From NCBI GenBank assembly GCA_040900375.1, contig JBBDZC010000018.1, positions 567 to 64,566 of the forward strand: a stretch of 64,000 nt of DNA, in the 5' to 3' direction. Under the pieces are notes generated by a model. The model was not told the origin of the DNA, made no database searches, and was given only the letters and a program-made list of their open reading frames with translations. The stretch's first letter is position 1. Each line of letters begins with the position of its first letter. This document shows positions 2,702 to 30,175 of this stretch, piece after piece. The translations under genes were made by a program, and so were the position numbers. Source of the stretch: Candidatus Anderseniibacteriota bacterium. Its GTDB lineage: Bacteria > Patescibacteriota > Andersenbacteria > UBA10190.

Positions 2702-5700
2702 ATGCATCCGGTGTGGAGCTATCCTTTTAGGCATGCGCGGCTGGGGCGATTTCTCGTCAGTAGTTTGCTCGCTTTTTTATTGTCCTTCTCTCCGATCTTT
2801 CCGCTCATTACCTGGTATGGCATTGCCACGACCCTCTCGGTGATTGCGGCTACCTTAGCCCCCACACCCTCTCTCCTCGACGATGCTCGGGATAAACCAA
2901 CTCCACCATCATCTCTGCCCGTATCCCCTACTCCCTCACCGACGGTCGCCGAGCCACTCACGACGACGGTTGAACACATTTTAACTGAAGTGAGCGAAGC
3001 AGTGCCCGCTATCTCACTGGGAGATGAGACTAACGCTCCGGTGCACAGCCAGGTGGTGCTCCCGGAACTACGACAACAAGCCGAGCTGATACACTTACCC
3101 GTAACGGTTGTATCTGCCGCCGAGCTCCTCGTGCTCCCGGAACCCGATGTGCCCGCCACGGCCGATCTTACCTTTGCGCTCAAGGTCGAGTTGCCTCGTG
3201 AGTTAGTGCGTAGGCAAGGAGCGACAGCAGGAGCGGCCCCAGCGATTGAGGCGGCCGCAGAAGCGGTGCTCGAGACACCACCGCTTGAAGAACTACCGAC
3301 AGGTAGTGTGCCCCCGAGTGTGGCAGAAATTCTGACACCCAGCCCGAGTCCTTCTCCCTTCGACGATGTTCGGGGTAAACCAAGCCCGACACCCATCTCT
3401 TCTTTCACACCCTTGAGTGAACTTGATGGCGAAGCGAATGAATCTTTTCCGGCCGAGCCTTCGCCAGCGCCCTTTGATACTCCTCCTGTACCTTCCCCTT
3501 CACCGCTGGTTCGCCTCTGGCAGTTCTTGACGGCACATACCCCGACAGTCTCGGCGGCGCTCTTCCCTCCCGAGGAGGCGCCGGCAACTGCCGTAGCCGT
3601 CACGGTGACTGATCCGCTGGGCGAGCCGGTCACTATTATCCCTGTGATCACCGAGGAGGCTGGCCAGGCACTCGTACGCATCCCGCAGGCTCCCACTCAG
3701 TTTCGCCCAGGAAAATATCACCTGATGGTGAGCGTGGTTGAAGGCGACCATGTACTCCAAGCCGAGCAAGACTTCACCTGGGGTGTCCTGGCCTTAAATC
3801 TCAACCAATCAACGTATGAGCCGGGCGAGACCGCCAGTATTGGTATGGCAGTGTTAGATGATGCAGGGCATACACTCTGCGATGCCGATCTTACCTTGGT
3901 CATTACGGCGCCCTCGGGTGCAGTCACGACGCTTTCTACCGCCGAGCAGTCTATCACTACTTCCCCCACCTGCGTTGATCAAAGCGTGACCGATCTGCCC
4001 GATTATGCTACCAGCTACACACCGCAAGAGTTGGGCACCTACGCGCTCAAACTCACGGCGGTAACGGCCAACGGCACCCGGGAGATGCAGCAGTTCTTTA
4101 CAGTTGAGAGTGAGGCTCCCTACATAGTCAGCCGCCAGGGTAGCATGCGTATCTTTCCTTTAGCTGCCTATACTATGAAGGTCACTGTCACGGCCGCGCA
4201 AGACTTCCGGGGCAAGCTCACCGAAACTGTCCCCGGGAGCTTTGCTTTATCGGCGGCCACACTAACTAGGTCCGGGACTACCGAGCGCGGTAATTGGTCA
4301 CTCGACATTCATCCCGATGAGACAACTAAACGCCTTGTCTGGGACAATGTGGAGCTCTCGGCTGGGCAATCGGCGACACTTTCCTACACCTACGACGCGC
4401 CGGATATCAGTCCCGAGTTTTATTTATTAGGACCGCTCGAAGTAATCAGCAGCTCCGGCACCGATAACGACACGCCAGTCTGGCTCGAGCCGCGAGCCTG
4501 GCAGATAGCCGCCGACATCATCACCAATGGGGCTAATGCGATCGATGCGTTAGGGCAGTATGACGATAATCTTACGACACCAGGGCCGATTTACACCAAA
4601 GGGACAGGTCAAGACGCCCCCAATCGGTTGGGGTTGAATGCTCCTTGGTCTGACCCAGCGCTTGATAGTGTGAACAATCGTCTCTTTGTTCCAGACTCCA
4701 GTAACAACCGTGTCTTAGTCTACAACCTCAATGCGGATGATACGCTCATTGACCGCATTCCGGATAATGTCTTAGGCCAAGCTAATTTTTATACCAATGC
4801 ATCCGCCACGACGCAGGCGGGATTGAGCTTTCCTACCGGGCTGGCCTATGACAGTACCAACCAGCGCCTGTTTGTGGTAGATAGTGATAACAGCCGCGTG
4901 CTGGTGTTCGATGTGACGGCGATTACCGACGGCGAGAATGCGGTGAATGTATTGGGCCAAGCGAATTTTACTTCAAGCGGGCCAGCCACGACGCAGGCAG
5001 GGTTGAACTTCCCCCACAAAGCTGCATATGACAGTACTAATAGCCGGTTATTTGTGGCCGATAGTGGTAACAGCCGCGTGCTCGTGTTCGACGTCACCGC
5101 GATTACGAATGGTGAAAATGCGGTGAATATACTAGGGAAAACTAGTTTTACCTCGAGTCTCCCTGCAACCACGCAGTCGGGGATGAGCGATCCTATAGGG
5201 GTAGCGTATGACAGTACTAATAGTCGGTTGTTCGTGGCTGAAGAAGGCAACCACCGCGTTACGGTGTTCGATGTGACGGCGATTACTGATGGCGAGAATG
5301 CGGTGAATGTATTGGGCCAAGCGAATTTCACGTCGGCGGGCTCTGCCACCACCCAATCCGGGATGACCAGCCCCCGCGGGGTAGCCTACGACAGTACTAA
5401 TAGTCGGCTGTTTGTGCCTGAAAGGGGCAACCACCGCGTTACGGTGTTCGATGTGACGGCGATTACCGATGGCGAGAATGCGGTAAACGTACTGGGGCAA
5501 GCGAATTTCACCTCAAGTTCAAGCGCCACGACGCAGGCGGGGATGAGCAGTCCCCGCGGGGCAGCATACGACGCCACCAACAACCTGTTGTTTGTGACTG
5601 CTAGCGGTAACCACCGCATCACCGTCTATGACGTCACCGCGATTACCGATGGCGAGAATGCGGTAGACGCGTTAGGGCAGTATGATAATAGCTTAAGTGC

Positions 5701-8700
5701 CCCTGCTCCCATCTATACCAAAGGCAGCGCTCACAATGCGCCCAACAGATTAGGCATGAGTGTTACTCAAGGTGGGGTTATCTTCGATAGTACCAACGAT
5801 CGCCTCTTTGTCTCGGATTCTGGCAACGATCGTGTCTTGGTCTATAACCTTAATGCGAACGACACGCTCATTGACCGCATTCCCGATAACGTGTTGGGTC
5901 AAGCAAATTTCTATACGAATACTGGGGCCACGACGCAGGCAGGCCTCAATACCCCTCTTGGCCTAGCCTATGATAGTACCAACCAACGGCTATTCGTGAC
6001 TGATGCGAGTAATAACCGGGTGGTAATCTATGATGTCACCGCTATTACCGATGGCGAGAATGCCGTCAATGTGTTGGGGCAAGCAAACTTTACCACGGCG
6101 ACGGCCGCCACCACGCAAGCGGGAATGAGTAGCCCCCGCGGGGTAGCGTACGATAGCGCCAACCAACGATTATTCGTAGGCGATAGCACCAATAATCGTG
6201 TAGTGGTATTCGACGTCACCGCGATTACCGATGGCGAGAATGCGGTGAATGTATTGGGCCAAGCGAATTTTACTTCAAGCGGGGCAGCCACGACGCAAGC
6301 CGGAATGAACAATCCCCAGGGGTTGGCCTACGATAGTACTAACAGCCGGTTGTTTGTAGCTGACAGTAGTAACAACCGTGTCACGACGTTTGACGTCACC
6401 GCGATTACCGATGGCGAGAATGCGGCAAACGTGCTGGGGCAAACAAGCTTTACCGTAAGTACTGCCGCCACCACCCAGGCCGGGATGAGCACCCCCAGCG
6501 CGGCGGCTTACGATAGCACCAACAGCCGGTTATTTGTCAGCGCGACCGGCAATGACCGCGTGACGACGTATAATGTCGCGAGTATCACTAATGGCGAGAG
6601 TGCCGTGAATGTATTAGGTCAAGCTAATTTTACCTCAAGTGGAGAAGCCACTACTCAAGCGGGAATGGCTGATCCCCATGGGTTAGCCTACGACAGCACC
6701 AACAGCCGGTTATATGTAAATGATACTAATAACGATCGGATCATCGTTCATGATGCCGCTGATCCCACGATCACGTGGGACGGCGGGGGTACTGATGGCA
6801 CCTGTGGCGGTGGCGCCGGGGATGGCAATAAGTGGTCGTGTGCGGCGAACTGGAGCGGGGATGTTGTTCCCACTAGTGCTCATATCGCCACCTTCGATGG
6901 CACATCTACTAAAAACGCGACAATTGATGCCAACATTGACGTCTATGGTATTGACATTAATACGGGCTACACCGGGACCATTACCCAGGCCACGGGGGTA
7001 ACCGTCACGGTTGGTAGCGGAGGCTACGACCAAGCGGCGGGTACCTTTACGGGCAGTAATAGCGCCATTGACATCAATGGTGCCTGGGCGCTCTCGGGGG
7101 GGGCGTTTACAAGCACCAGCGGGGCACTCTCCGTCAGCGATGCTTTCACGATCTCGGGCGGGACGTTCACCCATAACTCGGGCACGGTGCAGTTCGATAC
7201 TACCGCCGCCACGATTACGCCTTCCACCGCGAGCTTCAACAATGTCTCGTTTACCAGCGCCGTAACAAAGACTATTGCTGCCAGCAACACTATAACGATA
7301 GTGGGCACGCTCACCCTCACCGACGGCAGCGTGAGCCAAACGACCATTCCGGCCACGGGCTCTATTGCCGCCCAGGGCGACATTACGCAAGCTTCCACGT
7401 TTGATGGTGGTACGGGCCGGCTGGAGATTACGGGGACGGCTACCCAGACTTTTACCGGCAATGCCACCACCACGGCGGGGAACCTACCTGACACCGAAAT
7501 TGACAAGAGCGGCGGCACCCTCACGCTCACCGGCACGATCCGGACTATTGGCCAGGGAGCCGGCGCCTGGACGTACACGACCGGAACACTTGATGCCGGC
7601 ACAAGCACGGTGGTAATGAATGGCGCAATGACTATCACGGGTTCGCATACGTTGAATAACGTCTCACTGCTGACGTCGGGAACGAGAACAATCGCCAACA
7701 ACAATACCCTCACCGTCACCGGCACCCTTACGCTCACCGATGGCTCGATCAATCAAACAACCATCCCGGCCACCGGCTCCATCGCTGCTCAAGGAAATAT
7801 CACGCAGGCGTCAACTTTTGATGGTGGTACGGGCCGGTTAGAGATTACGGGGAGTGCAGCGCAAACCTTCACGGGGAATGCCACGACCTCGGCCGGAAAT
7901 CTGCCAGACTTGGAGATTGACAAGAGCGCTGAAACGCTCACGCTCACCGGCACCATTCGTACGACTGGCCAGGGAGCTGATGCCTGGACGTACACCACCG
8001 GAACATTGGCTGCTGGCACCAGTACGGTGGTGATGGATGGAGCGATGACCATCACGGGTTCGCATACGTTGAATAACGTTTCACTGCTGACGTCGGGAAC
8101 CCGTACTGTTGCCTCTGGCACCACGCTCACAATCGTAGGCACTCTCACACTCACCGATGGGCAAATCAACACCGGCACCGTTGCCGCCCAGGGCAATATT
8201 ACGCAAGGCTCTGCGTTTGATGGTGGTACGGGCCGGCTGGAGATTACGGGGACGGCTACCCAGACCTTTACCGGCAATGCCACCACCACGGCGGGTAGTC
8301 TATCTCGCGTAGAGATTAACAAAAGCGGCGGAACACTGACACTCGCTGGCACGATTCGCACTAGTGGCCAAGGACCAGATGCCTGGACATACACAGCAGG
8401 GACTGTCGCCCCCGGCACGAGCACGGTAGTCTTTGACGGTGGAACAACCGTCACCGGCACGCAGACGTTCAACAACCTGGTAGTCCAAGGTTTCATGACG
8501 GTTGCCGACGGTAACACGCTGACGGTGACAGGTACCCTCACGCTCACCAGTGGGACCATTGTTCAAACGACAATTCCGGCCACGGGCTCTATTGCCGCCC
8601 AGGGCGACATTACGCAAGCTTCCACGTTTGGTGGTGGTACGGGCCGGCTGGAGATTACGGGAAGTGCGAATCAGACCTTTACCGGCAGTGCCGCCGACTC

Positions 8701-11700
8701 GACAGGGCTCCTCCCTAACCTCGAAATTGACAAGAGCGGCGGCACCCTCACGTTCACCGGCACGATCCGGACCGCTGTGGATTGGACATACACCGCTGGC
8801 ACACTCGACGCGACGACGAACGATTCGACGGTTATCTTTGGCGGGGCTTCGACGATCAACATCACTGGCTCGCACACGCTCGACAATGTGACTTTCGGCG
8901 ACAATTTCCAAGTGATCGTCAATATCGCTGATAACACGACGCTCACCATCGCCGGCACCCTCGCGCACACGAAGGCCCAAATCAATCAAACGACTGTCCC
9001 CGCCGCCGGGTCTCTTGCTGCGCAAGGCGATGTGACGGTTGGATCGGCTGCTCCCGGCGGGACTGCCGCCCTTACCTTCTCGGGAGGAAACGCGCAGACT
9101 TACACCGATAACGGCGGCACGAAGACGACAGGGACTGTTACTGTCAATAAGACGGCAGGGTCGGCCGTCACTCTCGCCACGGCCATGTCGTATACCGGCA
9201 CCGGCCAGGATCTCACCATTACCTCCGGCACGCTTGATCTCGCAGGTTTCAACCTCACCATCGCGGATGTCCTCACGGTCAACGGCGGCACCCTTACGGG
9301 GGAAACAGGCGCTGTTGATGTGAATGGCAGTGTCGTTTTGTCTTCCGGCACGCTCACCGCCCCCTCGGGCGCCTTCACTGTTGCCGGCGACTTCACCCAC
9401 AGTAGCGGCACCTTTACCCACAACTCTGGTACCCTCACCCTCGACGGCCCCGACCAAACCCTCGCGGGAGCCACCACCTTTCATAACTTAACCAAGACTG
9501 TCGCGACTGCTCGCACCTTAACCTTCCCGACTGGTTCAGCTAACAAGCAGACCATTGTGGGTACGCTGACCCTCCAAGGGGCATCAGGAGCCTTGCTCTC
9601 GCTGCGCTCGGCTTCCACCGGCACCCAGTGGCAGTTCGACCCTCAAGGCACCCGCACACTGTCCTTCTTAGACGTACAAGACAGCCACAATACCAATAGT
9701 ACGAGTATTGCCACGGCGGGCTTTAATATTACTGATAGTGGTAATAACACGGGCTGGTCGTTTAACCCTGAACCACCCTCTAACTTTGCGGGGACGGCCA
9801 TCTCCGGTACGGCCATCACCTGGACCTGGACGGATAACGCCACGGATGAAACGGGTTTCAAGCTCTTAGACGCGAGCGACACCGTAATTGCCACGATCAA
9901 CACTGCCAATGCGACTTCCTACACGGAAACCGGCCTCGCGGCTGGTACTGACTACAGTCGCAAACTGATTGCGTTCAATGGTGCTGGAGAATCAGCGGCC
10001 ACGAGTACAGTGACCGTCACCACGCTGACTTCACCTCCGACTGCCCCTGAACTGCGCTCACCGAGTAATGAAGCACTCTTAAACACCAATCTCCCCACGT
10101 TCTCCTGGAACAAGAGCACCGACAATGATGATGGGATGGCGACCTACACTCTCACTCTGGGCAGCCTGGTCCTCTCGGGGATTCCGGCGAGTGGCAGCAG
10201 TGCCTCTGACCCAGGGAGTAAAACCCACGTGGCTACCAGCTACACCGCCCAGTACTTTAATGAAAATGATGGCAATCCGGATAATGATTACATTGCCCTG
10301 ACGCTTAAAGACAGTGAGCGGGCGGATATCCCCCTTACTGACGGGGAACACTCGTGGTTCGTGACGGCGCACGATACGGCGGGGAACACCACCACCAGTG
10401 CCAGCCGCAGCTTCACGGTGGATACGCAGGCGCCCACGATTGGCAGTATCAGCTTTAGCCCGCCAGCGTTGTTGAGATCTGGCACCTACCGCTTACAGAG
10501 CGGCTCCCTGGCAGTCACCATCCCCCTCACCGATACCCAGGCCCTCCAGGAAGCCACCGTGACCTTTGCCCAGGCCCGCACGCTCTTTGGTCTCATCACC
10601 AGCTACACCACCCTCCAGAGTTCGACGTATGCCCTATCAGGGACTGCCCGGACGATCATCTTCGCTCCTCGGGAGGCCCTCACCGCGGGAGAGACGTACC
10701 GCATCAACATCACCGTCACTGATACCGCTGGGAACCGCAGGCTCCAGGACCTGACTCTCGTGGTGCTCACCCCCGAAGAGGCAGCCCGCGAGGCCGTTAT
10801 TGAACTCGATGCCGAGACGACGCCCATTGACATTATTATTGAGAAATTACGGGAGGCCTTACCGGATGCGCCCTTGAGTCTGCCGGATTTACAAGCGTCA
10901 GCGCTCCTGCGACGGGATCTGCAGGCCGAGCACTTCACCGCGTTCTGGCAGGGGTTACTAGGTAACCGCCTCATCGCCTGGGTACTCGATCACTTAGGTG
11001 GCTTTCCCCGTGCCCTCTTGGCAACTATTGATATCACCCAGAGCTTATGGGAGCGCTTATTGGCCCTCGCCATCCGGATAGCGGTGGCAGCCGGCACCAT
11101 GATTCGGGATACGAGCCTGGCGCTTGTCCATGGGGTCGTAGCAAGTGTTGATCGCGTCGCGCTCGAAACGACCACTGCCCAACGAATAGTCCGGCTACAG
11201 ACGGCCCGCGGGCTAGCACAGCTCGGCGCTCTCCTCGCCCAGCTGACGCCGACTCTTGGCGAACCGCTGCAGCAGGTGGGAGAAAGTTTAGCGCTGTCGC
11301 CGGATATAGGGATGGAGTATCGGGAGGAGCGCTTAACGACCCAGGCGCAGGTGAGTCGGATTAATACGCAATTACAGGCGGTGGGAAGCTTCTTCCGCGC
11401 CGGGTGGGAGACGGGTAGGGAGACGCGGGTGCGGACGGGACTCAAGAATCGGCAGGAATTGACACAAGGAACAGAACGGTTGCTGGGGCCGGTGGGGAGG
11501 TTGACAAAAACTCTGGCTCTTAAAACCCGAGCGACATACGAACTATGGCTGGATACTACCCCCACACATATTAGTAATGTCCGCGTGACCAAACTCACAC
11601 CGACGAGCGCGACCCTGGAATGGGATACTAACCACCTCGTCCGTTCCACTAAAGTTAACTACGGCACGACCACTAATTATAATCAGGAAGTTATTATCGA

Positions 11701-12100
11701 TGCTCTCGCTGATCACCATCGGGTCACTATCGCTAATCTTTTGCCTCGTACCACCTACTACTTTGAAGTTACTAATCAAGGCAGTAGAAACTATGTCTTC
11801 GACGCCTACTATACCTTAACCACACCCGCGCAGGATGAGCCAAGTCCACCGACGCCGCTGGCACCACAAGACGCCGTCGTTACTGCCAGCGAGCCGGTAT
11901 CGGTCTATGGTGAACCTGTGCCGACAGCCACCATAATTACAACACTATCTCCCGGCACTCGCCTGCGCGCACTCAATGAGCAGTTGGGGTGGATCTCGGT
12001 ACTATTGCCCAGTGGCCAAGAAGGCTGGCTGCAAGCGGATTATATTCAGTTGCAACTTCATGAGGGGGTGTCGGCTCAGTCTAACCACGATACTCTGTAG
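2702..12100 (+). CDS. Giant (3132 aa) cell-surface repeat protein / putative adhesin
   Basis: Single 9.4 kb ORF. The N-terminus has a hydrophobic signal/anchor (FLVSSLLAFLLSFSPIFPLITWYGIATTLSVIAATL). A Pro/Ser/Thr/Glu-rich linker follows, then MG/Ig-like segments. About 13 NHL-type repeats (YDSTNSRLFVADSGNSRVLVFDVTAITDGENAVNVLGQANFTSSG...) are arranged as two blocks, each preceded by ALGQYD(D/N). At least five ~145-aa Thr/Gly-rich repeats follow (TLTLTDGS.NQTTIPATGSIAAQG.ITQASTFDGGTGRLEITG...TFTGNATT.AGNLP..EIDKSGGTLTLTGTIRT). Two FN3-like segments (ISGTAITWTWTDNATDETGFKLL...; VRVTKLTPTSATLEWDTNH...YYFEVTN) and a C-terminal SH3b-like motif (TLSPGTRLRALNEQLGWISVLLPSGQEGWLQADYIQL) complete the architecture. 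Confidence 0.85.
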   Translation: MHPVWSYPFRHARLGRFLVSSLLAFLLSFSPIFPLITWYGIATTLSVIAATLAPTPSLLDDARDKPTPPSSLPVSPTPSPTVAEPLTTTVEHILTEVSEAVPAISLGDETNAPVHSQVVLPELRQQAELIHLPVTVVSAAELLVLPEPDVPATADLTFALKVELPRELVRRQGATAGAAPAIEAAAEAVLETPPLEELPTGSVPPSVAEILTPSPSPSPFDDVRGKPSPTPISSFTPLSELDGEANESFPAEPSPAPFDTPPVPSPSPLVRLWQFLTAHTPTVSAALFPPEEAPATAVAVTVTDPLGEPVTIIPVITEEAGQALVRIPQAPTQFRPGKYHLMVSVVEGDHVLQAEQDFTWGVLALNLNQSTYEPGETASIGMAVLDDAGHTLCDADLTLVITAPSGAVTTLSTAEQSITTSPTCVDQSVTDLPDYATSYTPQELGTYALKLTAVTANGTREMQQFFTVESEAPYIVSRQGSMRIFPLAAYTMKVTVTAAQDFRGKLTETVPGSFALSAATLTRSGTTERGNWSLDIHPDETTKRLVWDNVELSAGQSATLSYTYDAPDISPEFYLLGPLEVISSSGTDNDTPVWLEPRAWQIAADIITNGANAIDALGQYDDNLTTPGPIYTKGTGQDAPNRLGLNAPWSDPALDSVNNRLFVPDSSNNRVLVYNLNADDTLIDRIPDNVLGQANFYTNASATTQAGLSFPTGLAYDSTNQRLFVVDSDNSRVLVFDVTAITDGENAVNVLGQANFTSSGPATTQAGLNFPHKAAYDSTNSRLFVADSGNSRVLVFDVTAITNGENAVNILGKTSFTSSLPATTQSGMSDPIGVAYDSTNSRLFVAEEGNHRVTVFDVTAITDGENAVNVLGQANFTSAGSATTQSGMTSPRGVAYDSTNSRLFVPERGNHRVTVFDVTAITDGENAVNVLGQANFTSSSSATTQAGMSSPRGAAYDATNNLLFVTASGNHRITVYDVTAITDGENAVDALGQYDNSLSAPAPIYTKGSAHNAPNRLGMSVTQGGVIFDSTNDRLFVSDSGNDRVLVYNLNANDTLIDRIPDNVLGQANFYTNTGATTQAGLNTPLGLAYDSTNQRLFVTDASNNRVVIYDVTAITDGENAVNVLGQANFTTATAATTQAGMSSPRGVAYDSANQRLFVGDSTNNRVVVFDVTAITDGENAVNVLGQANFTSSGAATTQAGMNNPQGLAYDSTNSRLFVADSSNNRVTTFDVTAITDGENAANVLGQTSFTVSTAATTQAGMSTPSAAAYDSTNSRLFVSATGNDRVTTYNVASITNGESAVNVLGQANFTSSGEATTQAGMADPHGLAYDSTNSRLYVNDTNNDRIIVHDAADPTITWDGGGTDGTCGGGAGDGNKWSCAANWSGDVVPTSAHIATFDGTSTKNATIDANIDVYGIDINTGYTGTITQATGVTVTVGSGGYDQAAGTFTGSNSAIDINGAWALSGGAFTSTSGALSVSDAFTISGGTFTHNSGTVQFDTTAATITPSTASFNNVSFTSAVTKTIAASNTITIVGTLTLTDGSVSQTTIPATGSIAAQGDITQASTFDGGTGRLEITGTATQTFTGNATTTAGNLPDTEIDKSGGTLTLTGTIRTIGQGAGAWTYTTGTLDAGTSTVVMNGAMTITGSHTLNNVSLLTSGTRTIANNNTLTVTGTLTLTDGSINQTTIPATGSIAAQGNITQASTFDGGTGRLEITGSAAQTFTGNATTSAGNLPDLEIDKSAETLTLTGTIRTTGQGADAWTYTTGTLAAGTSTVVMDGAMTITGSHTLNNVSLLTSGTRTVASGTTLTIVGTLTLTDGQINTGTVAAQGNITQGSAFDGGTGRLEITGTATQTFTGNATTTAGSLSRVEINKSGGTLTLAGTIRTSGQGPDAWTYTAGTVAPGTSTVVFDGGTTVTGTQTFNNLVVQGFMTVADGNTLTVTGTLTLTSGTIVQTTIPATGSIAAQGDITQASTFGGGTGRLEITGSANQTFTGSAADSTGLLPNLEIDKSGGTLTFTGTIRTAVDWTYTAGTLDATTNDSTVIFGGASTINITGSHTLDNVTFGDNFQVIVNIADNTTLTIAGTLAHTKAQINQTTVPAAGSLAAQGDVTVGSAAPGGTAALTFSGGNAQTYTDNGGTKTTGTVTVNKTAGSAVTLATAMSYTGTGQDLTITSGTLDLAGFNLTIADVLTVNGGTLTGETGAVDVNGSVVLSSGTLTAPSGAFTVAGDFTHSSGTFTHNSGTLTLDGPDQTLAGATTFHNLTKTVATARTLTFPTGSANKQTIVGTLTLQGASGALLSLRSASTGTQWQFDPQGTRTLSFLDVQDSHNTNSTSIATAGFNITDSGNNTGWSFNPEPPSNFAGTAISGTAITWTWTDNATDETGFKLLDASDTVIATINTANATSYTETGLAAGTDYSRKLIAFNGAGESAATSTVTVTTLTSPPTAPELRSPSNEALLNTNLPTFSWNKSTDNDDGMATYTLTLGSLVLSGIPASGSSASDPGSKTHVATSYTAQYFNENDGNPDNDYIALTLKDSERADIPLTDGEHSWFVTAHDTAGNTTTSASRSFTVDTQAPTIGSISFSPPALLRSGTYRLQSGSLAVTIPLTDTQALQEATVTFAQARTLFGLITSYTTLQSSTYALSGTARTIIFAPREALTAGETYRINITVTDTAGNRRLQDLTLVVLTPEEAAREAVIELDAETTPIDIIIEKLREALPDAPLSLPDLQASALLRRDLQAEHFTAFWQGLLGNRLIAWVLDHLGGFPRALLATIDITQSLWERLLALAIRIAVAAGTMIRDTSLALVHGVVASVDRVALETTTAQRIVRLQTARGLAQLGALLAQLTPTLGEPLQQVGESLALSPDIGMEYREERLTTQAQVSRINTQLQAVGSFFRAGWETGRETRVRTGLKNRQELTQGTERLLGPVGRLTKTLALKTRATYELWLDTTPTHISNVRVTKLTPTSATLEWDTNHLVRSTKVNYGTTTNYNQEVIIDALADHHRVTIANLLPRTTYYFEVTNQGSRNYVFDAYYTLTTPAQDEPSPPTPLAPQDAVVTASEPVSVYGEPVPTATIITTLSPGTRLRALNEQLGWISVLLPSGQEGWLQADYIQLQLHEGVSAQSNHDTL
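4520..6770 (+). repeat. Intragenic tandem repeats (~180 nt, ~13 copies) encoding NHL/beta-propeller blades inside the giant gene
   Basis: DNA blocks such as gatgtgacggcgattaccgacggcgagaatgcggtgaatgtattgggccaagcgaatttt recur at about 4911, 5271, 5451, 6041, 6221, 6401 and elsewhere with few mismatches. The protein repeat is YDSTN.RLFV.D..N.RV.VFDVTAITDGENAVNVLGQANFTS...ATTQAGM. A higher-order duplication is marked by ALGQYD(D/N) at about 4550 and 5670. Confidence 0.8.
7250..8860 (+). repeat. Intragenic ~435-450 nt tandem repeats (4-5 copies) encoding Thr/Gly-rich beta-solenoid-like units
   Basis: Near-identical DNA segments: 7345-7432 versus 8574-8661 (~88 nt, 1 mismatch) and 7401-7480 versus 8215-8295 (~80 nt, 1 mismatch). 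More diverged copies lie near 7789 and 8100. Confidence 0.8.
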
Positions 12101-15649: not shown

Positions 15650-15682
15650 GGCAAGTTGGTCCGCTCAACGCGTCACCCGCTG

Positions 15683-16822
15683 TTAATTTATACTCCCGAC
15701 TACAATTTCTGTGGCCTCGGGACGAGCGGGAACACTCTTCACCCAAAAAGGTGAGAATTGCACTTCCACTGACTCAACGCTCGGAAACTGTTGAAAATAC
15801 TCTTGCACCTCGGCGGCACTCCGACCGGCAAGGTTATCAGCGGAAAATAATGCTGGCCCCGCCTTACTGGCAAAGACGCCCGTTAGTGTTCCTTTAACAC
15901 GCGCTTCTCCCCGGGTAAAATCACTGCGCGTAATACTGACAGTAAATGATTCGGGTTTATACGACATAAATTCTTCATCGGGTTTTGGGGCCGAGCGCAG
16001 GGCGAGAAGAGTTAAACTCAACAGGTCGTTGTCATCAGGAAAAAAGCCGCGGGCTTTGATTTTTTTCTGCACAGTAAATTCAGTTGTTTTACTGCCGGCG
16101 GCGGCGGAAACACTCTCCTCCACTGTGGTCATAGTGACTAAATCTGGTCGGGTAAGCGCCCCCCCGGCCGCCGCCGTGAGTTCGCCCTCAATCCGCCCAC
16201 GCGCTTGTTTATCAACTTCTTCTTTGGCTCTGCTTATTTCTTCTTCGGTGAGCGGTGTCTCACCACTGACCCCACCACTGAAAGTAGTAGAGCTCTCGGC
16301 ATAGACGACCTTTTGCGCACTAGCGGGTAGCTTATCAATGATAAAGGTGCCGGGTGTGACGTTGCCGGGCAGTCCTTTTTCTTTCGCGGTCACGGCAACT
16401 GATACTTCCCCCAAGGGCGGAACAACCACAGCAGCATCAGTGAGAAAAAAGATGCCGGTGCCTTCGTGGCGTAAATGGGACTTTGGCAGCAGCCGCTGTT
16501 CTTCTGCCTGCTTATTAATTATTTTCACTGTGCCCCGCGCTAAGTCTTCAAATGTCTTTTGGCCCTCGCGCTTAAAAGTCTTAGTTTCCGTGACTTCCTT
16601 CTCCAGTAATTTGGCCGGCAAGATATAGCGGACAAAATCAGGTTCGTGACTAGTTTGCGACAAGGTAATTTCTTGCGTTACTTCCCGTTCATAGGTAGCG
16701 GGACGAACAATGATTGTTGCTTGCGGTAGGCGGGTATACGCCATACTAGCAAAAATCAGGCCAAGCAAAATTCCCGCGCTGGCGACTAGCGCCCGGCGAG
16801 GTATAGCAACGTGTGCAGGCAT
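15683..16822 (-). CDS. Hypothetical N-terminally membrane-anchored protein
   Basis: 379-aa ORF with an N-terminal transmembrane segment (ALVASAGILLGLIFASMAY) and no recognisable motif. Its ATG (16822-16820) lies inside the first terminal inverted repeat of the MITE-like element. Confidence 0.55.
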   Translation of the reverse strand: MPAHVAIPRRALVASAGILLGLIFASMAYTRLPQATIIVRPATYEREVTQEITLSQTSHEPDFVRYILPAKLLEKEVTETKTFKREGQKTFEDLARGTVKIINKQAEEQRLLPKSHLRHEGTGIFFLTDAAVVVPPLGEVSVAVTAKEKGLPGNVTPGTFIIDKLPASAQKVVYAESSTTFSGGVSGETPLTEEEISRAKEEVDKQARGRIEGELTAAAGGALTRPDLVTMTTVEESVSAAAGSKTTEFTVQKKIKARGFFPDDNDLLSLTLLALRSAPKPDEEFMSYKPESFTVSITRSDFTRGEARVKGTLTGVFASKAGPALFSADNLAGRSAAEVQEYFQQFPSVESVEVQFSPFWVKSVPARPEATEIVVGSIN

Positions 16823-17103
16823 ACCCCGTAGAGCTACCTCGATGCGTCCCGTTTGGACGGCATGGCAGCAAGTGAGAGTGGTGGCTGACGAGTAAGGCTG
16901 TTGGTTATTGTATCCATGGGTTTACACTACGAGCGCGTGATCGAGGTGATTCTACGGGGCATACCCCGTAGAGCTACCTCGATGCGTCCCGCTTAGACGG
17001 GACGGCAGCAAGGAAAAGCTGTGGTTTACCCATACGGCTGGTGGGAAGGTAGACATGGACTTTTTAGGACGAATGGGTGATCGAGGTGATTCTACGGGGC
17101 ATA
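16818..17103. repeat. Two tandem copies (~140 bp period) of a MITE-like element bounded by ~27 bp terminal inverted repeats
   Basis: Motif A, ggcataccccgtagagctacctcgatgcgtcccg, occurs at 16818-16851 and 16958-16991. Motif B, gtgatcgaggtgattctacggggcata, occurs at 16937-16963 and 17077-17103. B is an imperfect reverse complement of A (core ccccgtaga...acctcgat). The B1/A2 junction forms a 9-bp perfect palindrome tctacgggg-cata-ccccgtaga. The interiors of the two units diverge after about 55 nt. Confidence 0.55.
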
Positions 17104-17204
17104 AATACACTATTTGAGTATTCAGTTACCATACCAATCTACCCAAGATAAGACAAGGAGCCCCCACAGCGTGACTAGCTTGCCTGTGTTACCATACAGG
17201 GGTT

Positions 17205-18953
17205 ATGCGAAAAAAAATCTCGCCCGATCTTGATCTTGCAACCATGCGCCATACGGCCGCCCACGTCTTGGCCGCCGCTTCTACTAAGTTGCGTCCAGAA
17301 ACAAAGCTAGGGGTTGGACCAGCGATTGATGACGGTTTTTATCATGATCTTGAAGTTAATCCTAACTACACCGAGGAAGATTTAGCTGTATTGCAGGCGA
17401 AAATGGAAGAAATTAAAGAGATGGACTTGCCAATTACCCAGCGCGAGGTAAGCCGCGCCGAGGCTCGTGAGCTGTTTGCGCACGATCCTTATAAACTAGA
17501 GCTAATTGAGGAAGTGGCAGGTGAGACAGTCGGTGTATCGGATATGGGAGAAGGCTTCTTCATCACGCTCTGCAAGGGTGGCCATGTATCTTCAACCGGT
17601 CAGATTGGGGCTTTTAAGCTCACGCGTCTGGCCGGAGTTTATTGGAAGGGAGATACTACCCGGCCACAGCTGCAACGGATTTATGGCCTGGCCTTCCCGA
17701 CACCGGCCGAGCTGGAAGCGCATCTGACCTTGCTGGCAGAGGCGAAAAAACGTGACCACCGCAAACTAGGCCGAGAGTTGGATCTCTTTACCTTCTCCCC
17801 GCTTGTCGGACCGGGGCTGCCGCTCTTTACACCTCGCGGCACCATTATCCGCCGCGAACTGGAGACCTTTCTGCAGTCGCTGCAGGAACCGCACGGCTAT
17901 CAACGAGTTATTATTCCCCATATTACTAAAGCAGATCTGTATAAAACCTCGGGGCACTGGGAAAAATTCCAAGCCGATCTTTTTCACGTGCAGGGCCAGA
18001 GTGAAGAGTCGCTGGTGCTTAAGCCAATGAATTGCCCCCACCATACCCAGATTTATGCGGCGCGGCCGCGCAGCTACCGCGATCTGCCGCTCCGTTTGTC
18101 AGAAGTTACCACGGTGTATCGTGATGAGCAGGCGGGCGAGCTGCAAGGCCTAACCCGCGTGCGATCCATCACCCAAGATGATGCTCATGTGTTTTGTCGC
18201 AGCGATCAAATTGCGGCGGAGGCGGTTATTATCATGCAAATTGTAGAAGAGTTTTATGCCGTGTTTGATTTCACGCTGCGCGTTCGTCTCTCGTTGCGCG
18301 ACCCCGCTAAACCTGATAAGTACTTGGGTTCAGAGGCTACCTGGCAACAGGCAGAAGCAAGCTTACGCACCCTACTCGAAGAGAAAAAGGTAGAATTTGT
18401 GGAGCAAAAGGGCGAGGCGGCTTTTTATGGGCCGAAGATTGATTTTATTGCTCGTGATTCCCTTGGCCGAGACTGGCAACTAGCCACGATCCAGCTTGAC
18501 TTTAATATGCCGGTGCGTTTTGCCCTCACCTACACTGACACTACTGGCCAGGAACAGACGCCAGTGATGATTCACCGAGCAATCTTAGGTTCATTTGAAC
18601 GCTTCATGGCAATTCTACTGGAACACTACGCTGGTACCCTCCCCCTCTGGTTGGCACCAACCCAGGTGGCACTTTTACCCATCGCCGACGCCCAGCACGA
18701 ATATGCCCGCCAAGTCGCTCAAGAACTGGCAGGCAGTGGCTTACGAGTCGAAACCGATGAACGGGCGATCAGTTTGGCCAAGAAAATTCGGGAAGCGCAA
18801 CAAAAAAAGGTACCCGTGATGCTCATTATGGGTAAAAAAGAATTAGCTGATACGACTATCGCGGTGCGTTTACTAAACCAGGGTGATCAAGGCCAAGCCT
18901 CCTTGCCCGAGCTGATACACGAACTTACCCAAAAAATTCGTGAGCGGAAGTGA
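17205..18953 (+). CDS. thrS: Threonyl-tRNA synthetase (lacks the N-terminal TGS domain; editing N2 domain retained)
   Basis: 582 aa. Motifs MRHTAAHVLAAA (editing-domain His pair), DHRKLGRELDLF, class II catalytic motifs, and a C-terminal anticodon-binding domain. Confidence 0.93.
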   Translation: MRKKISPDLDLATMRHTAAHVLAAASTKLRPETKLGVGPAIDDGFYHDLEVNPNYTEEDLAVLQAKMEEIKEMDLPITQREVSRAEARELFAHDPYKLELIEEVAGETVGVSDMGEGFFITLCKGGHVSSTGQIGAFKLTRLAGVYWKGDTTRPQLQRIYGLAFPTPAELEAHLTLLAEAKKRDHRKLGRELDLFTFSPLVGPGLPLFTPRGTIIRRELETFLQSLQEPHGYQRVIIPHITKADLYKTSGHWEKFQADLFHVQGQSEESLVLKPMNCPHHTQIYAARPRSYRDLPLRLSEVTTVYRDEQAGELQGLTRVRSITQDDAHVFCRSDQIAAEAVIIMQIVEEFYAVFDFTLRVRLSLRDPAKPDKYLGSEATWQQAEASLRTLLEEKKVEFVEQKGEAAFYGPKIDFIARDSLGRDWQLATIQLDFNMPVRFALTYTDTTGQEQTPVMIHRAILGSFERFMAILLEHYAGTLPLWLAPTQVALLPIADAQHEYARQVAQELAGSGLRVETDERAISLAKKIREAQQKKVPVMLIMGKKELADTTIAVRLLNQGDQGQASLPELIHELTQKIRERK

Positions 18954-27319: not shown

Positions 27320-27895
27320 ATGATTTTGTCTGACCGTGATATCAAAGCCGCGCTTAAGTCCGGGAAAATTGTGGTGAAGCCAAAACCCAACTTGGTCATT
27401 CAACTCGGCACCTCGAGTCTTGATCTGCGCCTCGGGTACCATTTTCGTGTCTTTAAGCATCGCCGCAAGCCTTTTATTGACCCTTTGGATCCCGACACGA
27501 TGACGGGAATGACCGAGGAAGTTAAAATCAGCCGGGCGCAACCTTACGTTATCCAACCGGATGAATTTGTCTTAGCTTCAGTTTTGGAATGGATAGAATT
27601 ACCAGACAACATCTCGGCGCGGATTGATGGTCGTAGCAGTCTGGGTCGTATTGGTCTAGTGATCCATTCTACGGCAGGCCATATTGATGCTGGCTTTCAG
27701 GGTTCAATTACGATGGAATTAAGCAATATTGGCATGATGCCAATATTGCTCTATCCCAAAATGCGCATTTGCCAATTAGTATTTGAGCCACTATCTTCAG
27801 CCGCCGAGCGACCTTATACCCAAAAACCCGGCGCCAAGTACGCGGGTAAGACCAGACCGGCCGAGGCAGCATTAGCACAAGAAATCGTTGAATGA
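27320..27895 (+). CDS. dcd: dCTP deaminase
   Basis: MILSDRDIKAALKSGKIVVKP...SSLDLRLG...RSSLGRIGL, the Dcd/dUTPase-fold signature. 191 aa. Confidence 0.9.
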   Translation: MILSDRDIKAALKSGKIVVKPKPNLVIQLGTSSLDLRLGYHFRVFKHRRKPFIDPLDPDTMTGMTEEVKISRAQPYVIQPDEFVLASVLEWIELPDNISARIDGRSSLGRIGLVIHSTAGHIDAGFQGSITMELSNIGMMPILLYPKMRICQLVFEPLSSAAERPYTQKPGAKYAGKTRPAEAALAQEIVE

Positions 27896-28785: not shown

Positions 28786-29454
28786 CTAACTGGCGATGAG
28801 CCGAGGTTTAACATACTGCCAGACTTCTTCATGAAGATCTTCACGTGTTCGCTCTTGGCCCTGGCCATCGACACCGGCAATTGTAATCCAACCCTGTACC
28901 GCAGCAACTTTAAGATAGGCTGCCCGGATCGCGGTCAGTTTTTCTTTGGTCTCGAAGAAATCTTTATTCTTTTCCTTCAAGCGCCGCAGTGAGACAGCCA
29001 CAGGGGTATCAAGAAAAAGAACTAGGTCGGGTTGCGGCAGAGTGGGTTGACCCGTAAAGCAGAGCCACCAAATCCAATCATACATTTCTTGCCACTCCTG
29101 GCCGCGTAACCCCATGGTCTGGTACGCAAACGCGCTGGTACAAAAACGGTCCGAGACAACGAGCTGGCGGCCCGATTTTTCACTGGTGTGAGCAGTGATG
29201 TCCTCGGCACGCGAGAAGAAATCCTGAATGTATAACAACGCCTGCTCCCGGCGAGAGAAGGGTTTTTTATTCTTATGGAGCAGGAACTTATCGTAGATCA
29301 GGCGCCCGGTTGCCCGATCTTCTTGGGGAAAATGGAGCGAGAGCGGCTGATATTTTTCTTGCTGGAGGCGGCGCACGAGCCAGTCCGTCTGGGTTTGGCT
29401 ACCGCCCGCATCCAGGGCTTCAATAACGATGAAGGGAGAAGGTCGCTTAGGCAT
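28786..29454 (-). CDS. Thymidylate kinase-family paralog with degenerate Walker A (Lys replaced)
   Basis: Tmk fold is indicated by FIVIEALDAGGSQTQ (consensus IVIEGLDGSGKSTQ) and VVSDRFCTSAFAYQ (DRY..S.AYQ). The P-loop Lys and Ser/Thr are replaced (GGSQT). The gene overlaps the upstream tmk stop by 8 nt. Confidence 0.55.
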   Translation of the reverse strand: MPKRPSPFIVIEALDAGGSQTQTDWLVRRLQQEKYQPLSLHFPQEDRATGRLIYDKFLLHKNKKPFSRREQALLYIQDFFSRAEDITAHTSEKSGRQLVVSDRFCTSAFAYQTMGLRGQEWQEMYDWIWWLCFTGQPTLPQPDLVLFLDTPVAVSLRRLKEKNKDFFETKEKLTAIRAAYLKVAAVQGWITIAGVDGQGQERTREDLHEEVWQYVKPRLIAS

Positions 29455-30175
29455 AGGCTTGGAGTAACTGCGGAAATTTAAGACGCAGGTTTTCCCAAAC
29501 TAATTCTGCCACGTCATCAACGTTCAATAGCTCCTCTCCCTCCACACAGAGGATCCGGAGAAACCGCGCGGGATCTTGCTGGCACAGGAGATCATATTCA
29601 TTGTAGAGTCGTTGTTGAATTTCCAGGTGATCGGTATACTCATCCTTGTCTTGCATCTTTTCTTTTCGTTTCTCTAAAAGACCAACAGAGATCTCGGGCA
29701 GTATATCTAAAAAAAGTGAAATGTGTTCCAAGGGCATCTGTTGCTCTTGATATTCATAGCGGCTAACAGCGGCTTGAATTTTATCCCGAAAGAGTTCGGT
29801 TTCCTGCACGTCCAATCCCTCAATGGTCATAAAGGCAATACTGCTGGCTACGTACCGATCATAGATGACTATTTCTCCTAATTTGAGGGCCTGTAGAACT
29901 TCTGCGCGGTGCTCGGCACGATTGTGTGCAAATAGGCGCATTTTTTCCGGCCACGGTATCGCCTGCCAGCGCCCATCTTTATTCTGGAGCTTTTGCTTTA
30001 ATTTTTGGCCGCTGGAAGTGGTATAATCGGGACTTTCAAAATGATGAACAACGTGCCCCATAAATCGCAGGCGCCGGAGGAGATGCTGAACCTGGGTATG
30101 CTTGCCGGACGAATCAAGGCCATCAAAAGCAATCAGCAGGCCAGTGGGTTTAGGCGCAGGACACATACATTCCAC
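29447..30175 (-). CDS. tmk: Thymidylate (dTMP) kinase
   Basis: LIAFDGLDSSGKHTQ (intact Walker A), IYDRYVASSIAFM (DRY motif), and a LID-like LEKRKEKMQDKDEYTDHLE segment. The true start is probably an internal Met (MCPAPK...). Confidence 0.7.
   Translation of the reverse strand: MECMCPAPKPTGLLIAFDGLDSSGKHTQVQHLLRRLRFMGHVVHHFESPDYTTSSGQKLKQKLQNKDGRWQAIPWPEKMRLFAHNRAEHRAEVLQALKLGEIVIYDRYVASSIAFMTIEGLDVQETELFRDKIQAAVSRYEYQEQQMPLEHISLFLDILPEISVGLLEKRKEKMQDKDEYTDHLEIQQRLYNEYDLLCQQDPARFLRILCVEGEELLNVDDVAELVWENLRLKFPQLLQAYA

Follow-up and report, generated by a model that had tools for sequence, protein, structure and literature searches.

The 64-kb stretch of DNA analysed here (64,000 nucleotides of contig JBBDZC010000018.1 from a Candidatus Anderseniibacteriota bacterium; hereafter the window) carries a non-coding array of two inverted-repeat units at positions 16818–17103, between two divergently oriented genes. 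To its left lies a gene for a membrane protein of 379 amino acids (aa) with a weak Baseplate_J-like match (15683–16822, minus strand), whose start codon abuts the first unit. To its right, a spacer of 101 bp (17104–17204) separates the array from thrS (17205–18953, plus strand), which encodes a class II threonyl-tRNA synthetase (ThrRS) of 582 aa without the N-terminal TGS domain and which is a neighbour of the element, not a part of it. The start of thrS at 17205 agrees with the distance of about 100 bp given in the initial annotation of this region, a reading of the DNA letters that had proposed a miniature inverted-repeat element or, alternatively, a regulatory structure shared by the two genes.

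A repeat finder, combined with reading of the sequence, resolved positions 16818–17103 into 2.04 head-to-tail copies with a period of 140 bp. The two units of ~140 bp bounded by inverted repeats that the initial annotation described are indeed present, each unit proper being 136 bp long. Direct copies were identified at 16818–16904 and 16958–17044 (82%) and at 16929–16963 and 17069–17103 (91%), the latter pair ending at 17103. Unit 1 (16824–16959, plus strand) and unit 2 (16964–17099, plus strand) can be aligned without a gap across 146 columns. Each is bounded by inverted arms of 20–26 nt, which pair 16818–16843 with 16940–16965 in unit 1 and 16961–16983 with 17080–17102 in unit 2. These arms contain terminal inverted repeats (TIRs) of 20 bp, the left one reading CCCCGTAGAGCTACCTCGAT and the right one ATCGAGGTGATTCTACGGGG, and both ends of both units carry them (16824–16843 and 16940–16959 in unit 1; 16964–16983 and 17080–17099 in unit 2). 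Left and right TIRs are complementary at 17 of 20 positions, the three imperfect ones being G-U, C/A and U-G on the plus strand, and the terminal sequences of the units are GGCATACCCCGTAGAGCTACCTCGATGCGTCCCG and GTGATCGAGGTGATTCTACGGGGCATA.

Where the two units meet, the right TIR of unit 1 and the left TIR of unit 2 form the arms (16940–16959 and 16964–16983) of a palindrome with a 4-nt gap. The core of this palindrome, TCTACGGGG-CATA-CCCCGTAGA, is present as first described, but over its full 44 bp the palindrome is imperfect. The window contains the 23-mer arm twice (0.00 occurrences expected), the degenerate 20-mer arm four times (0.02 expected) and the 9-mer CCCCGTAGA four times (0.36 expected), the 9-mer always within the element. 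The anatomy of the array is thus confirmed as real and lies far beyond chance. With 136 bp each, the units have no coding capacity, and a search with the six-frame peptides of the element, all joined into a single query, found no relative among 5.8 billion proteins at E <= 10.

Of the 140 positions, 36 differ between the units, and the differences are distributed very unevenly. Within the 140-bp period the termini are identical at 55 of 55 positions, whereas the interiors agree at only 49 of 85 and are therefore 42% diverged (Fisher's exact test, p = 3.8e-10). Identical blocks extend over 34 nt at the 5' end and 21–27 nt at the 3' end, and columns 88–119 of the alignment are near random (12/32 identical). 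Neutral decay after duplication in place cannot give identical ends together with a diverged core. This leaves two explanations: sequence-specific selection acts on the ends, or the units were inserted separately, as diverged members of one family that conserves its ends. Families of miniature inverted-repeat transposable elements (MITEs) ordinarily keep their ends while their members diverge, and conserved ends around a variable core are to be expected if a transposase recognises the ends. The proposal that the element had duplicated in place is consequently unlikely, because two separate insertions fit the observed pattern better; such insertions in turn predict source copies elsewhere in the genome.

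The tetranucleotide CATA stands immediately outside every terminus, three times in total: at 16820–16823 on the left flank, at 16960–16963, where it is both the spacer between the units and the loop of the junction palindrome (16940–16983), and at 17100–17103 on the right flank. The first copy belongs to a 6-nt flank, GGCATA (16818–16823), the reverse complement of TATGCC, and this flank holds the start codon of the 379-aa gene (16822–16820, minus strand). The ATG had originally been placed inside the first inverted repeat; it lies just outside the complementary arm, which begins at 16824. All seven orthologues of which the start was read begin with T-ATG, and in three of them CC follows, as in the window gene. 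Since the orthologues share the T-ATG start, the left GGCATA is host sequence, which would make the middle and right CATA duplicates of the left one. Three copies of CATA around ends of the form CCCC...GGGG represent a candidate signature of a 4-bp target-site duplication, the left CATA being its proposed first copy, and by this duplication the start codon of the 379-aa gene may have been kept intact. When the insertion is subtracted, a compact divergent spacer of 101 bp remains, and the empty site before insertion would read ...GCAGGCATAAATACAC....

The ThrRS of the window is 100% identical to a protein from a metagenome-assembled genome (MAG) of Candidatus Andersenbacteria, within the Candidate Phyla Radiation (CPR; Patescibacteria), and its next relatives reach 71% at most; identity to the GTDB species representatives is only 42–45%. 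We compared the locus with eight Andersenbacteria-like thrS loci (L011–L014 and L016–L019) of 66–71% ThrRS identity. The orthologue of the 379-aa gene (380 aa) lies directly upstream of thrS and on the same strand in all eight relatives, the spacer being 29–65 bp in seven of them and holding three extra genes in the eighth, L017. In the seven loci that reach far enough upstream (all but L011), the orthologue follows dnaE, again on the same strand. The orthologue of L012 is 49% identical to the window gene and has the weak Baseplate_J match in common with it. In the window, this gene is on the opposite strand, converging on dnaE across a 33-bp spacer and diverging from thrS across 382 bp. The divergent arrangement that the initial annotation recognised is therefore real, but it is a derived one, the membrane-protein gene being inverted relative to all relatives examined.

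The element sits at one breakpoint of this inversion, which is unique to the window lineage among the relatives examined. It is missing from the equivalent site in 8/8 relatives, none of which is a true empty site, given the ThrRS identity of 66–71% and the reversed neighbour gene. Covariance-model and pattern searches of the relatives' loci (120 kb) revealed no element either. The comparison of orthologous thrS upstream regions suggested at the outset thus shows that the element is not conserved with thrS in these relatives. To judge from gene order, the window locus is derived, by a single-gene inversion and a 280-bp insertion that are specific to this lineage. A programmed invertible segment (inverton) was considered as the basis of the inversion and rejected. 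No inverted repeat pairs the junction at 15650–15682 with the junction at 16823–17204, the lack of inverted repeats flanking the gene argues against programmed inversion, and no recombinase is encoded in the window.

Between the element and thrS, the plus strand carries the motif CTTGCCTGTGTTACCAT at 17179–17195. Its general form, CTTGCYYRTGNTAnnAT, a TRTG-type extended -10, is common to the window and six of the relatives (L011, L012, L014, L016, L017 and L018). The motif is found 9–22 nt before the ATG across the window and its relatives, with 9 nt from the -10 box to the ATG in the window. This short distance suggests that the thrS mRNA is leaderless or near-leaderless in these Andersenbacteria-like genomes. 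Because the conserved motif is downstream of the element, we infer that the element is probably outside the thrS mRNA; thrS probably keeps its own conserved promoter, and the effect of the element on thrS is probably nil. An operator or regulatory RNA shared with thrS, the alternative raised by the initial annotation, is weakened by the position of this motif and by the relatives that lack the element.

On the minus strand of the same spacer, a motif scan identified an extended -10-like sequence, TGGTATGGT, from 17136 to 17128, a candidate for the promoter that the 379-aa gene used before the insertion. The scan also located -10-like hexamers inside the element, namely TAGAAT in each right end and TACAAT at 16912 to 16907, and found no extended -10 on the plus strand upstream of the units. 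A consensus scan detected neither a promoter-like site with -35 and -10 paired nor an intrinsic terminator near the units. The region further contains a 14-nt direct repeat, CGTGACTAG(T/C)TTGC, 13 of 14 positions being identical between a copy in the 5' coding part of the inverted gene (16645–16658) and a copy at the edge of the thrS motif (17170–17183). About 0.05 such pairs are estimated to arise in the region by chance, and no role was found for it.

With roughly even confidence for and against, we read the array as two tandem, diverged members of a 136-bp non-autonomous TIR element of the MITE-like kind. The element looks like a small parasitic DNA insertion and not like a conserved regulator of thrS. 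The idea of a non-autonomous inverted-repeat element, already put forward in the initial annotation, is the best-supported one in view of the candidate CATA duplication, the identical ends, the absence from eight relatives and the lack of coding capacity, although its expected dispersed copies were not found in the window or in the collections scanned. The TIRs bounding both units, the location at an inversion breakpoint and the lack of any Rfam match also speak for it. A course of events can be proposed on this basis. A DDE-type transposase encoded elsewhere, outside the window, would bind the conserved termini of ~25–35 bp, and the element would have been inserted by a 4-bp staggered cut at the T-ATG that begins the 379-aa gene, with the target duplication preserving the start codon. 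A second, diverged member of the family would then have landed in the duplicated CATA beside the first; unequal exchange is a less likely origin of the pair. Insertion in a lineage that also carried the inversion of the 379-aa gene would have left the element between divergent genes. As a consequence, 280 bp of strongly self-complementary DNA would separate the 379-aa gene from its probable old promoter near 17130. In RNA made from this gene across the element, the AUG would be caught in the base of the unit-1 stem on the minus strand, UAUG pairing with UAUG through A-U and G-U pairs, and the gene could obtain a replacement promoter from the TAGAAT and TACAAT boxes of the element.

Several results weigh against a transposable origin. 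No further unit was detected in the 64-kb window by blastn (word size 7) or nhmmer with the element masked, or by a covariance model built from units 1 and 2 and run with filters off, and exact searches of the window with the 23-mer, the 9-mer and the degenerate 20-mer returned nothing beyond the element. The 120 kb of relatives' loci likewise contained no copy, so that the check for dispersed copies of the repeat and the unit proposed in the initial annotation came out negative in both sets. An exact-pattern scan with the degenerate 20-mer arm gave 0 matches in the GTDB species genomes and 0 in IMG/VR, the gapped two-arm pattern also gave 0 in IMG/VR, and the JGI metagenomes yielded only three matches with the 20-mer, which is at chance level. 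BLAST against phage and plasmid records produced short chance-level matches only. The ends of the element have no match in the GTDB species genomes, IMG/VR, phage or plasmid records, and we know of no full-length insertion sequence (IS) with these ends. The window itself encodes no transposase, as had been stated before, and none of its 36 large open reading frames (ORFs) corresponds to an integrase or a reverse transcriptase either. The threefold tandem CATA could also stem from one ancestral unit flanked by 4–6 nt of microhomology. In addition, there are hints of selection on an RNA fold, namely two compensatory pairs and, on the plus strand, G-U outnumbering C-A by 7:1. Dispersed copies, the defining property of a MITE, are thus not observed in the 64-kb window or the scanned collections. 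Membership in a MITE family is probable rather than proven, since neither dispersal nor a partner transposase was found. If the CPR genome is ~1 Mb, as we assume, 64 kb would amount to an estimated ~6% of it, and by our own arithmetic a family of ~20 copies would have no other member in the window in roughly one case out of four.

Some of the matches met in these searches deserve a brief description. A weak match at 1465–1536 of the window is apparent coding sequence at chance level and was discarded, and the only other repeats in the window are the coding repeats of a giant surface protein. The three JGI metagenome matches were judged to be chance, having nothing in common beyond the 20-mer and no partner arm. 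All three carry one of the window's two arm variants, from a pattern allowing eight, which is slightly odd and was also judged to be chance. In two of them, on unrelated high-GC contigs (L008, 77–96; L010, 4323–4342), the arm variant CCCCGTAGAATCACCTCGAT abuts the ATG of different genes, with TAGAAT 7 nt before the ATG, resembling the -10 box of a leaderless gene. A 16-nt exact match upstream of a thrS tblastn match in Methylococcus loci proved to lie inside the TGS-domain coding part of a longer thrS and was likewise attributed to chance.

A lineage-specific structured RNA in two tandem, diverged copies, acting either as a free small RNA or as a structured leader of the 379-aa gene or thrS, is the main rival reading of the array but one that we consider unlikely. 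In its architecture, a 20-bp stem (P1) would close a multi-branch core made up of P2, P3 and P4. We derived this four-helix model (P1 7–26/123–142, P2, P3 and P4) from unit 2 and tested it on the alignment of the two units, where 94.7% of cells pair, compared with 33–49% for slid partners. In P4, two pairs have both of their bases exchanged (C-G to G-C and A-U to G-C), and three pairs of the model shift from G-C or A-U to G-U. Seven G-U against one C-A on the plus strand would favour an RNA of thrS sense, and both copies have remained exactly 140 bp long despite the 42% divergence of their interiors. Unit 2 is the better-folding copy, with a stability far above that of shuffled sequence (-66.2 kcal/mol, z = -6.4 on the plus strand; -58.6 kcal/mol, z = -6.7 on the minus strand). 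However, unit 1 reaches a z-score of only -2.6 on the plus strand (-56.6 kcal/mol; z = -3.7 on the minus strand), and forcing it into the interior fold of unit 2 (-43.2 versus -56.6 kcal/mol) costs 13 kcal/mol. The z-scores favour neither strand, and the covariation in the four-helix model, which comes from two sequences and whose score was reached by 123 of 500 shuffles, is suggestive. Rfam cmscan of 16400–17600 at E <= 10 returned no family, T-box included, its two matches (sR35 and neisseria_FSE) being at chance level, and a scan of the whole window at the gathering thresholds returned 3 tRNAs only. A hammerhead-like sequence in unit 1, CUGACGAG, was rejected, being not conserved in unit 2, lacking a GAAA core and negative in Rfam. 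An RNA of this kind is further disfavoured by the lack of a plus-strand promoter-like site upstream, of a paired -35/-10 and of an intrinsic terminator near the units, by the conserved thrS motif lying downstream of the element, and by the absence of the element from all eight relatives. Moreover, perfect identity at 55 terminal positions exceeds what base pairing needs. The more specific proposal that the units define a new, lineage-restricted and non-mobile class of ~136-nt structured RNA in a CPR bacterium, controlling the re-oriented membrane-protein gene or thrS, appears quite unlikely to us. The features of such a class would be the 20-bp closing stem, the invariant blocks of 34 nt at the 5' end and 27 nt at the 3' end, and the variable core of fixed length, and its members might act, for example, as RNase III-processed or protein-binding RNAs.

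The remaining explanations do without an RNA. The array could be a non-mobile, functionless by-product of the inversion, in which template switching or fold-back repair at the breakpoint made a hairpin-forming filler that was later duplicated. Such an origin would account for the position of the element, precisely on one breakpoint of an inversion confined to the window lineage, and for its uniqueness in the window and all collections searched. We nevertheless regard it as distinctly doubtful, because the filler matches no neighbouring sequence that could have been its template, nothing comparable stands at the other breakpoint (15650–15682), and the gene has no flanking inverted repeats. Nor are identical ends around a diverged interior (p = 3.8e-10) like the neutral decay of a local duplication, and the CATA repeats coincide exactly with the termini of the inverted repeats. 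It is also improbable that the array consists of protein-binding sites at the DNA level, an operator or recombinase site serving the two divergent genes, even though such a function would suit the four 20-bp half-sites, which are identical, alternate in orientation and have 96-bp spacers of fixed length and one 44-bp palindrome. The perfect conservation of the arms, the diverged spacers of constant length and the position between divergent starts are all compatible with it. Yet no regulator or recombinase gene is nearby, the relatives keep both genes without the sites, no inverted sites flank the inverted gene, and the conservation reaches only 3–8 nt past the arms. Mis-joining during assembly, finally, might create a palindromic or tandem junction, and the sequence does come from a MAG contig with a gene orientation unlike that of all relatives. 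Such an artefact is very improbable, however, as collapsed or duplicated assembly does not produce units that differ at 36 positions, the inverted gene is intact, and both junctions are unique sequence.

CPR genomes are small and generally regarded as poor in mobile elements, and our literature searches turned up no description of a MITE in CPR (Patescibacteria) genomes. If the array is mobile, it would be a first small example of such an element in the CPR. It would also illustrate how an element inserted on a start codon can restore that codon by duplicating its target, here at the point where a single gene was inverted within a region of otherwise strong synteny. The lesson for annotation, negative but useful, is that the structure should not be taken for a conserved regulator of thrS. 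If the array proves to be unique in its genome, the invariant ends and the diverged core would have to be explained in some other way, for example by a structured RNA or by binding sites, and would be the more interesting for it.

The surroundings of the locus are mainly housekeeping in character. The genes of the window include dnaE, thrS, gatB, miaA, gyrB, pheST, type IV pilus genes, clpB and a gene for an NHL/fn3 surface protein of 3132 aa. This giant ORF (2702–12100, plus strand) encodes NHL repeats together with fn3, Big_13 and SH3 domains, contains tandem coding repeats of 180 nt and ~410 nt, and has a GC content of 54–58% compared with ~50% for the window. In four relatives (L016–L019), the place of the giant ORF upstream of dnaE is taken by ftsW and an unnamed gene. 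A near-perfect palindrome with 22-nt arms and a 1-nt gap lies at 27714–27758, inside a dCTP deaminase-like gene (27320–27895). Two adjacent thymidylate-kinase-like genes of 222 and 242 aa occupy 28786–30175 on the minus strand, and the same pair is present in L016, L018 and L019.

Compared with known systems, the array has partial likenesses to several. Like the T-box riboswitch (RF00230) and the thrS operator of E. coli, which mimics the anticodon arm of tRNA-Thr, it is a structured region upstream of thrS, and the two anticodon-like domains of the E. coli operator have a parallel in the two similar modules of the window. Unlike these leaders, it gave no T-box or other Rfam match at E <= 10, its predicted loops show no conserved anticodon-like loop by eye, and it lies upstream of the conserved thrS motif, 100 bp from the start codon, and is missing in relatives. 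REP and BIME sequences resemble it as imperfect palindromes of alternating orientation in intergenic DNA, but they are highly repeated units of ~20–40 nt, whereas the arms seen here are the ends of 136-bp units and nothing of them is repeated elsewhere in the 64 kb. In tandem IS dimers or circle junctions of the IS3, IS30, IS21 and IS256 types, inverted repeats abut across a spacer as long as the target duplication, and at 16940–16983 a right and a left end likewise abut, across a 4-nt spacer equal to the flanking repeat. IS circle junctions, however, join the ends of the same copy, whereas the units of the window differ at 36 of 140 positions and come without a transposase. Correia/NEMIS elements of Neisseria and RUP elements of Streptococcus pneumoniae form families of tens to hundreds of dispersed copies, and the Correia duplication is TA. 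The window element differs from both in having only two known copies, which are adjacent, a CATA flank and no sequence similarity to anything searched. It is nonetheless like them in its length of ~100–160 bp, its TIRs of ~20–26 bp, its candidate short target-site duplication and the absence of an ORF, and also in its intergenic position by gene starts, the long hairpin into which its transcripts would fold and the promoter-like hexamers within its ends.

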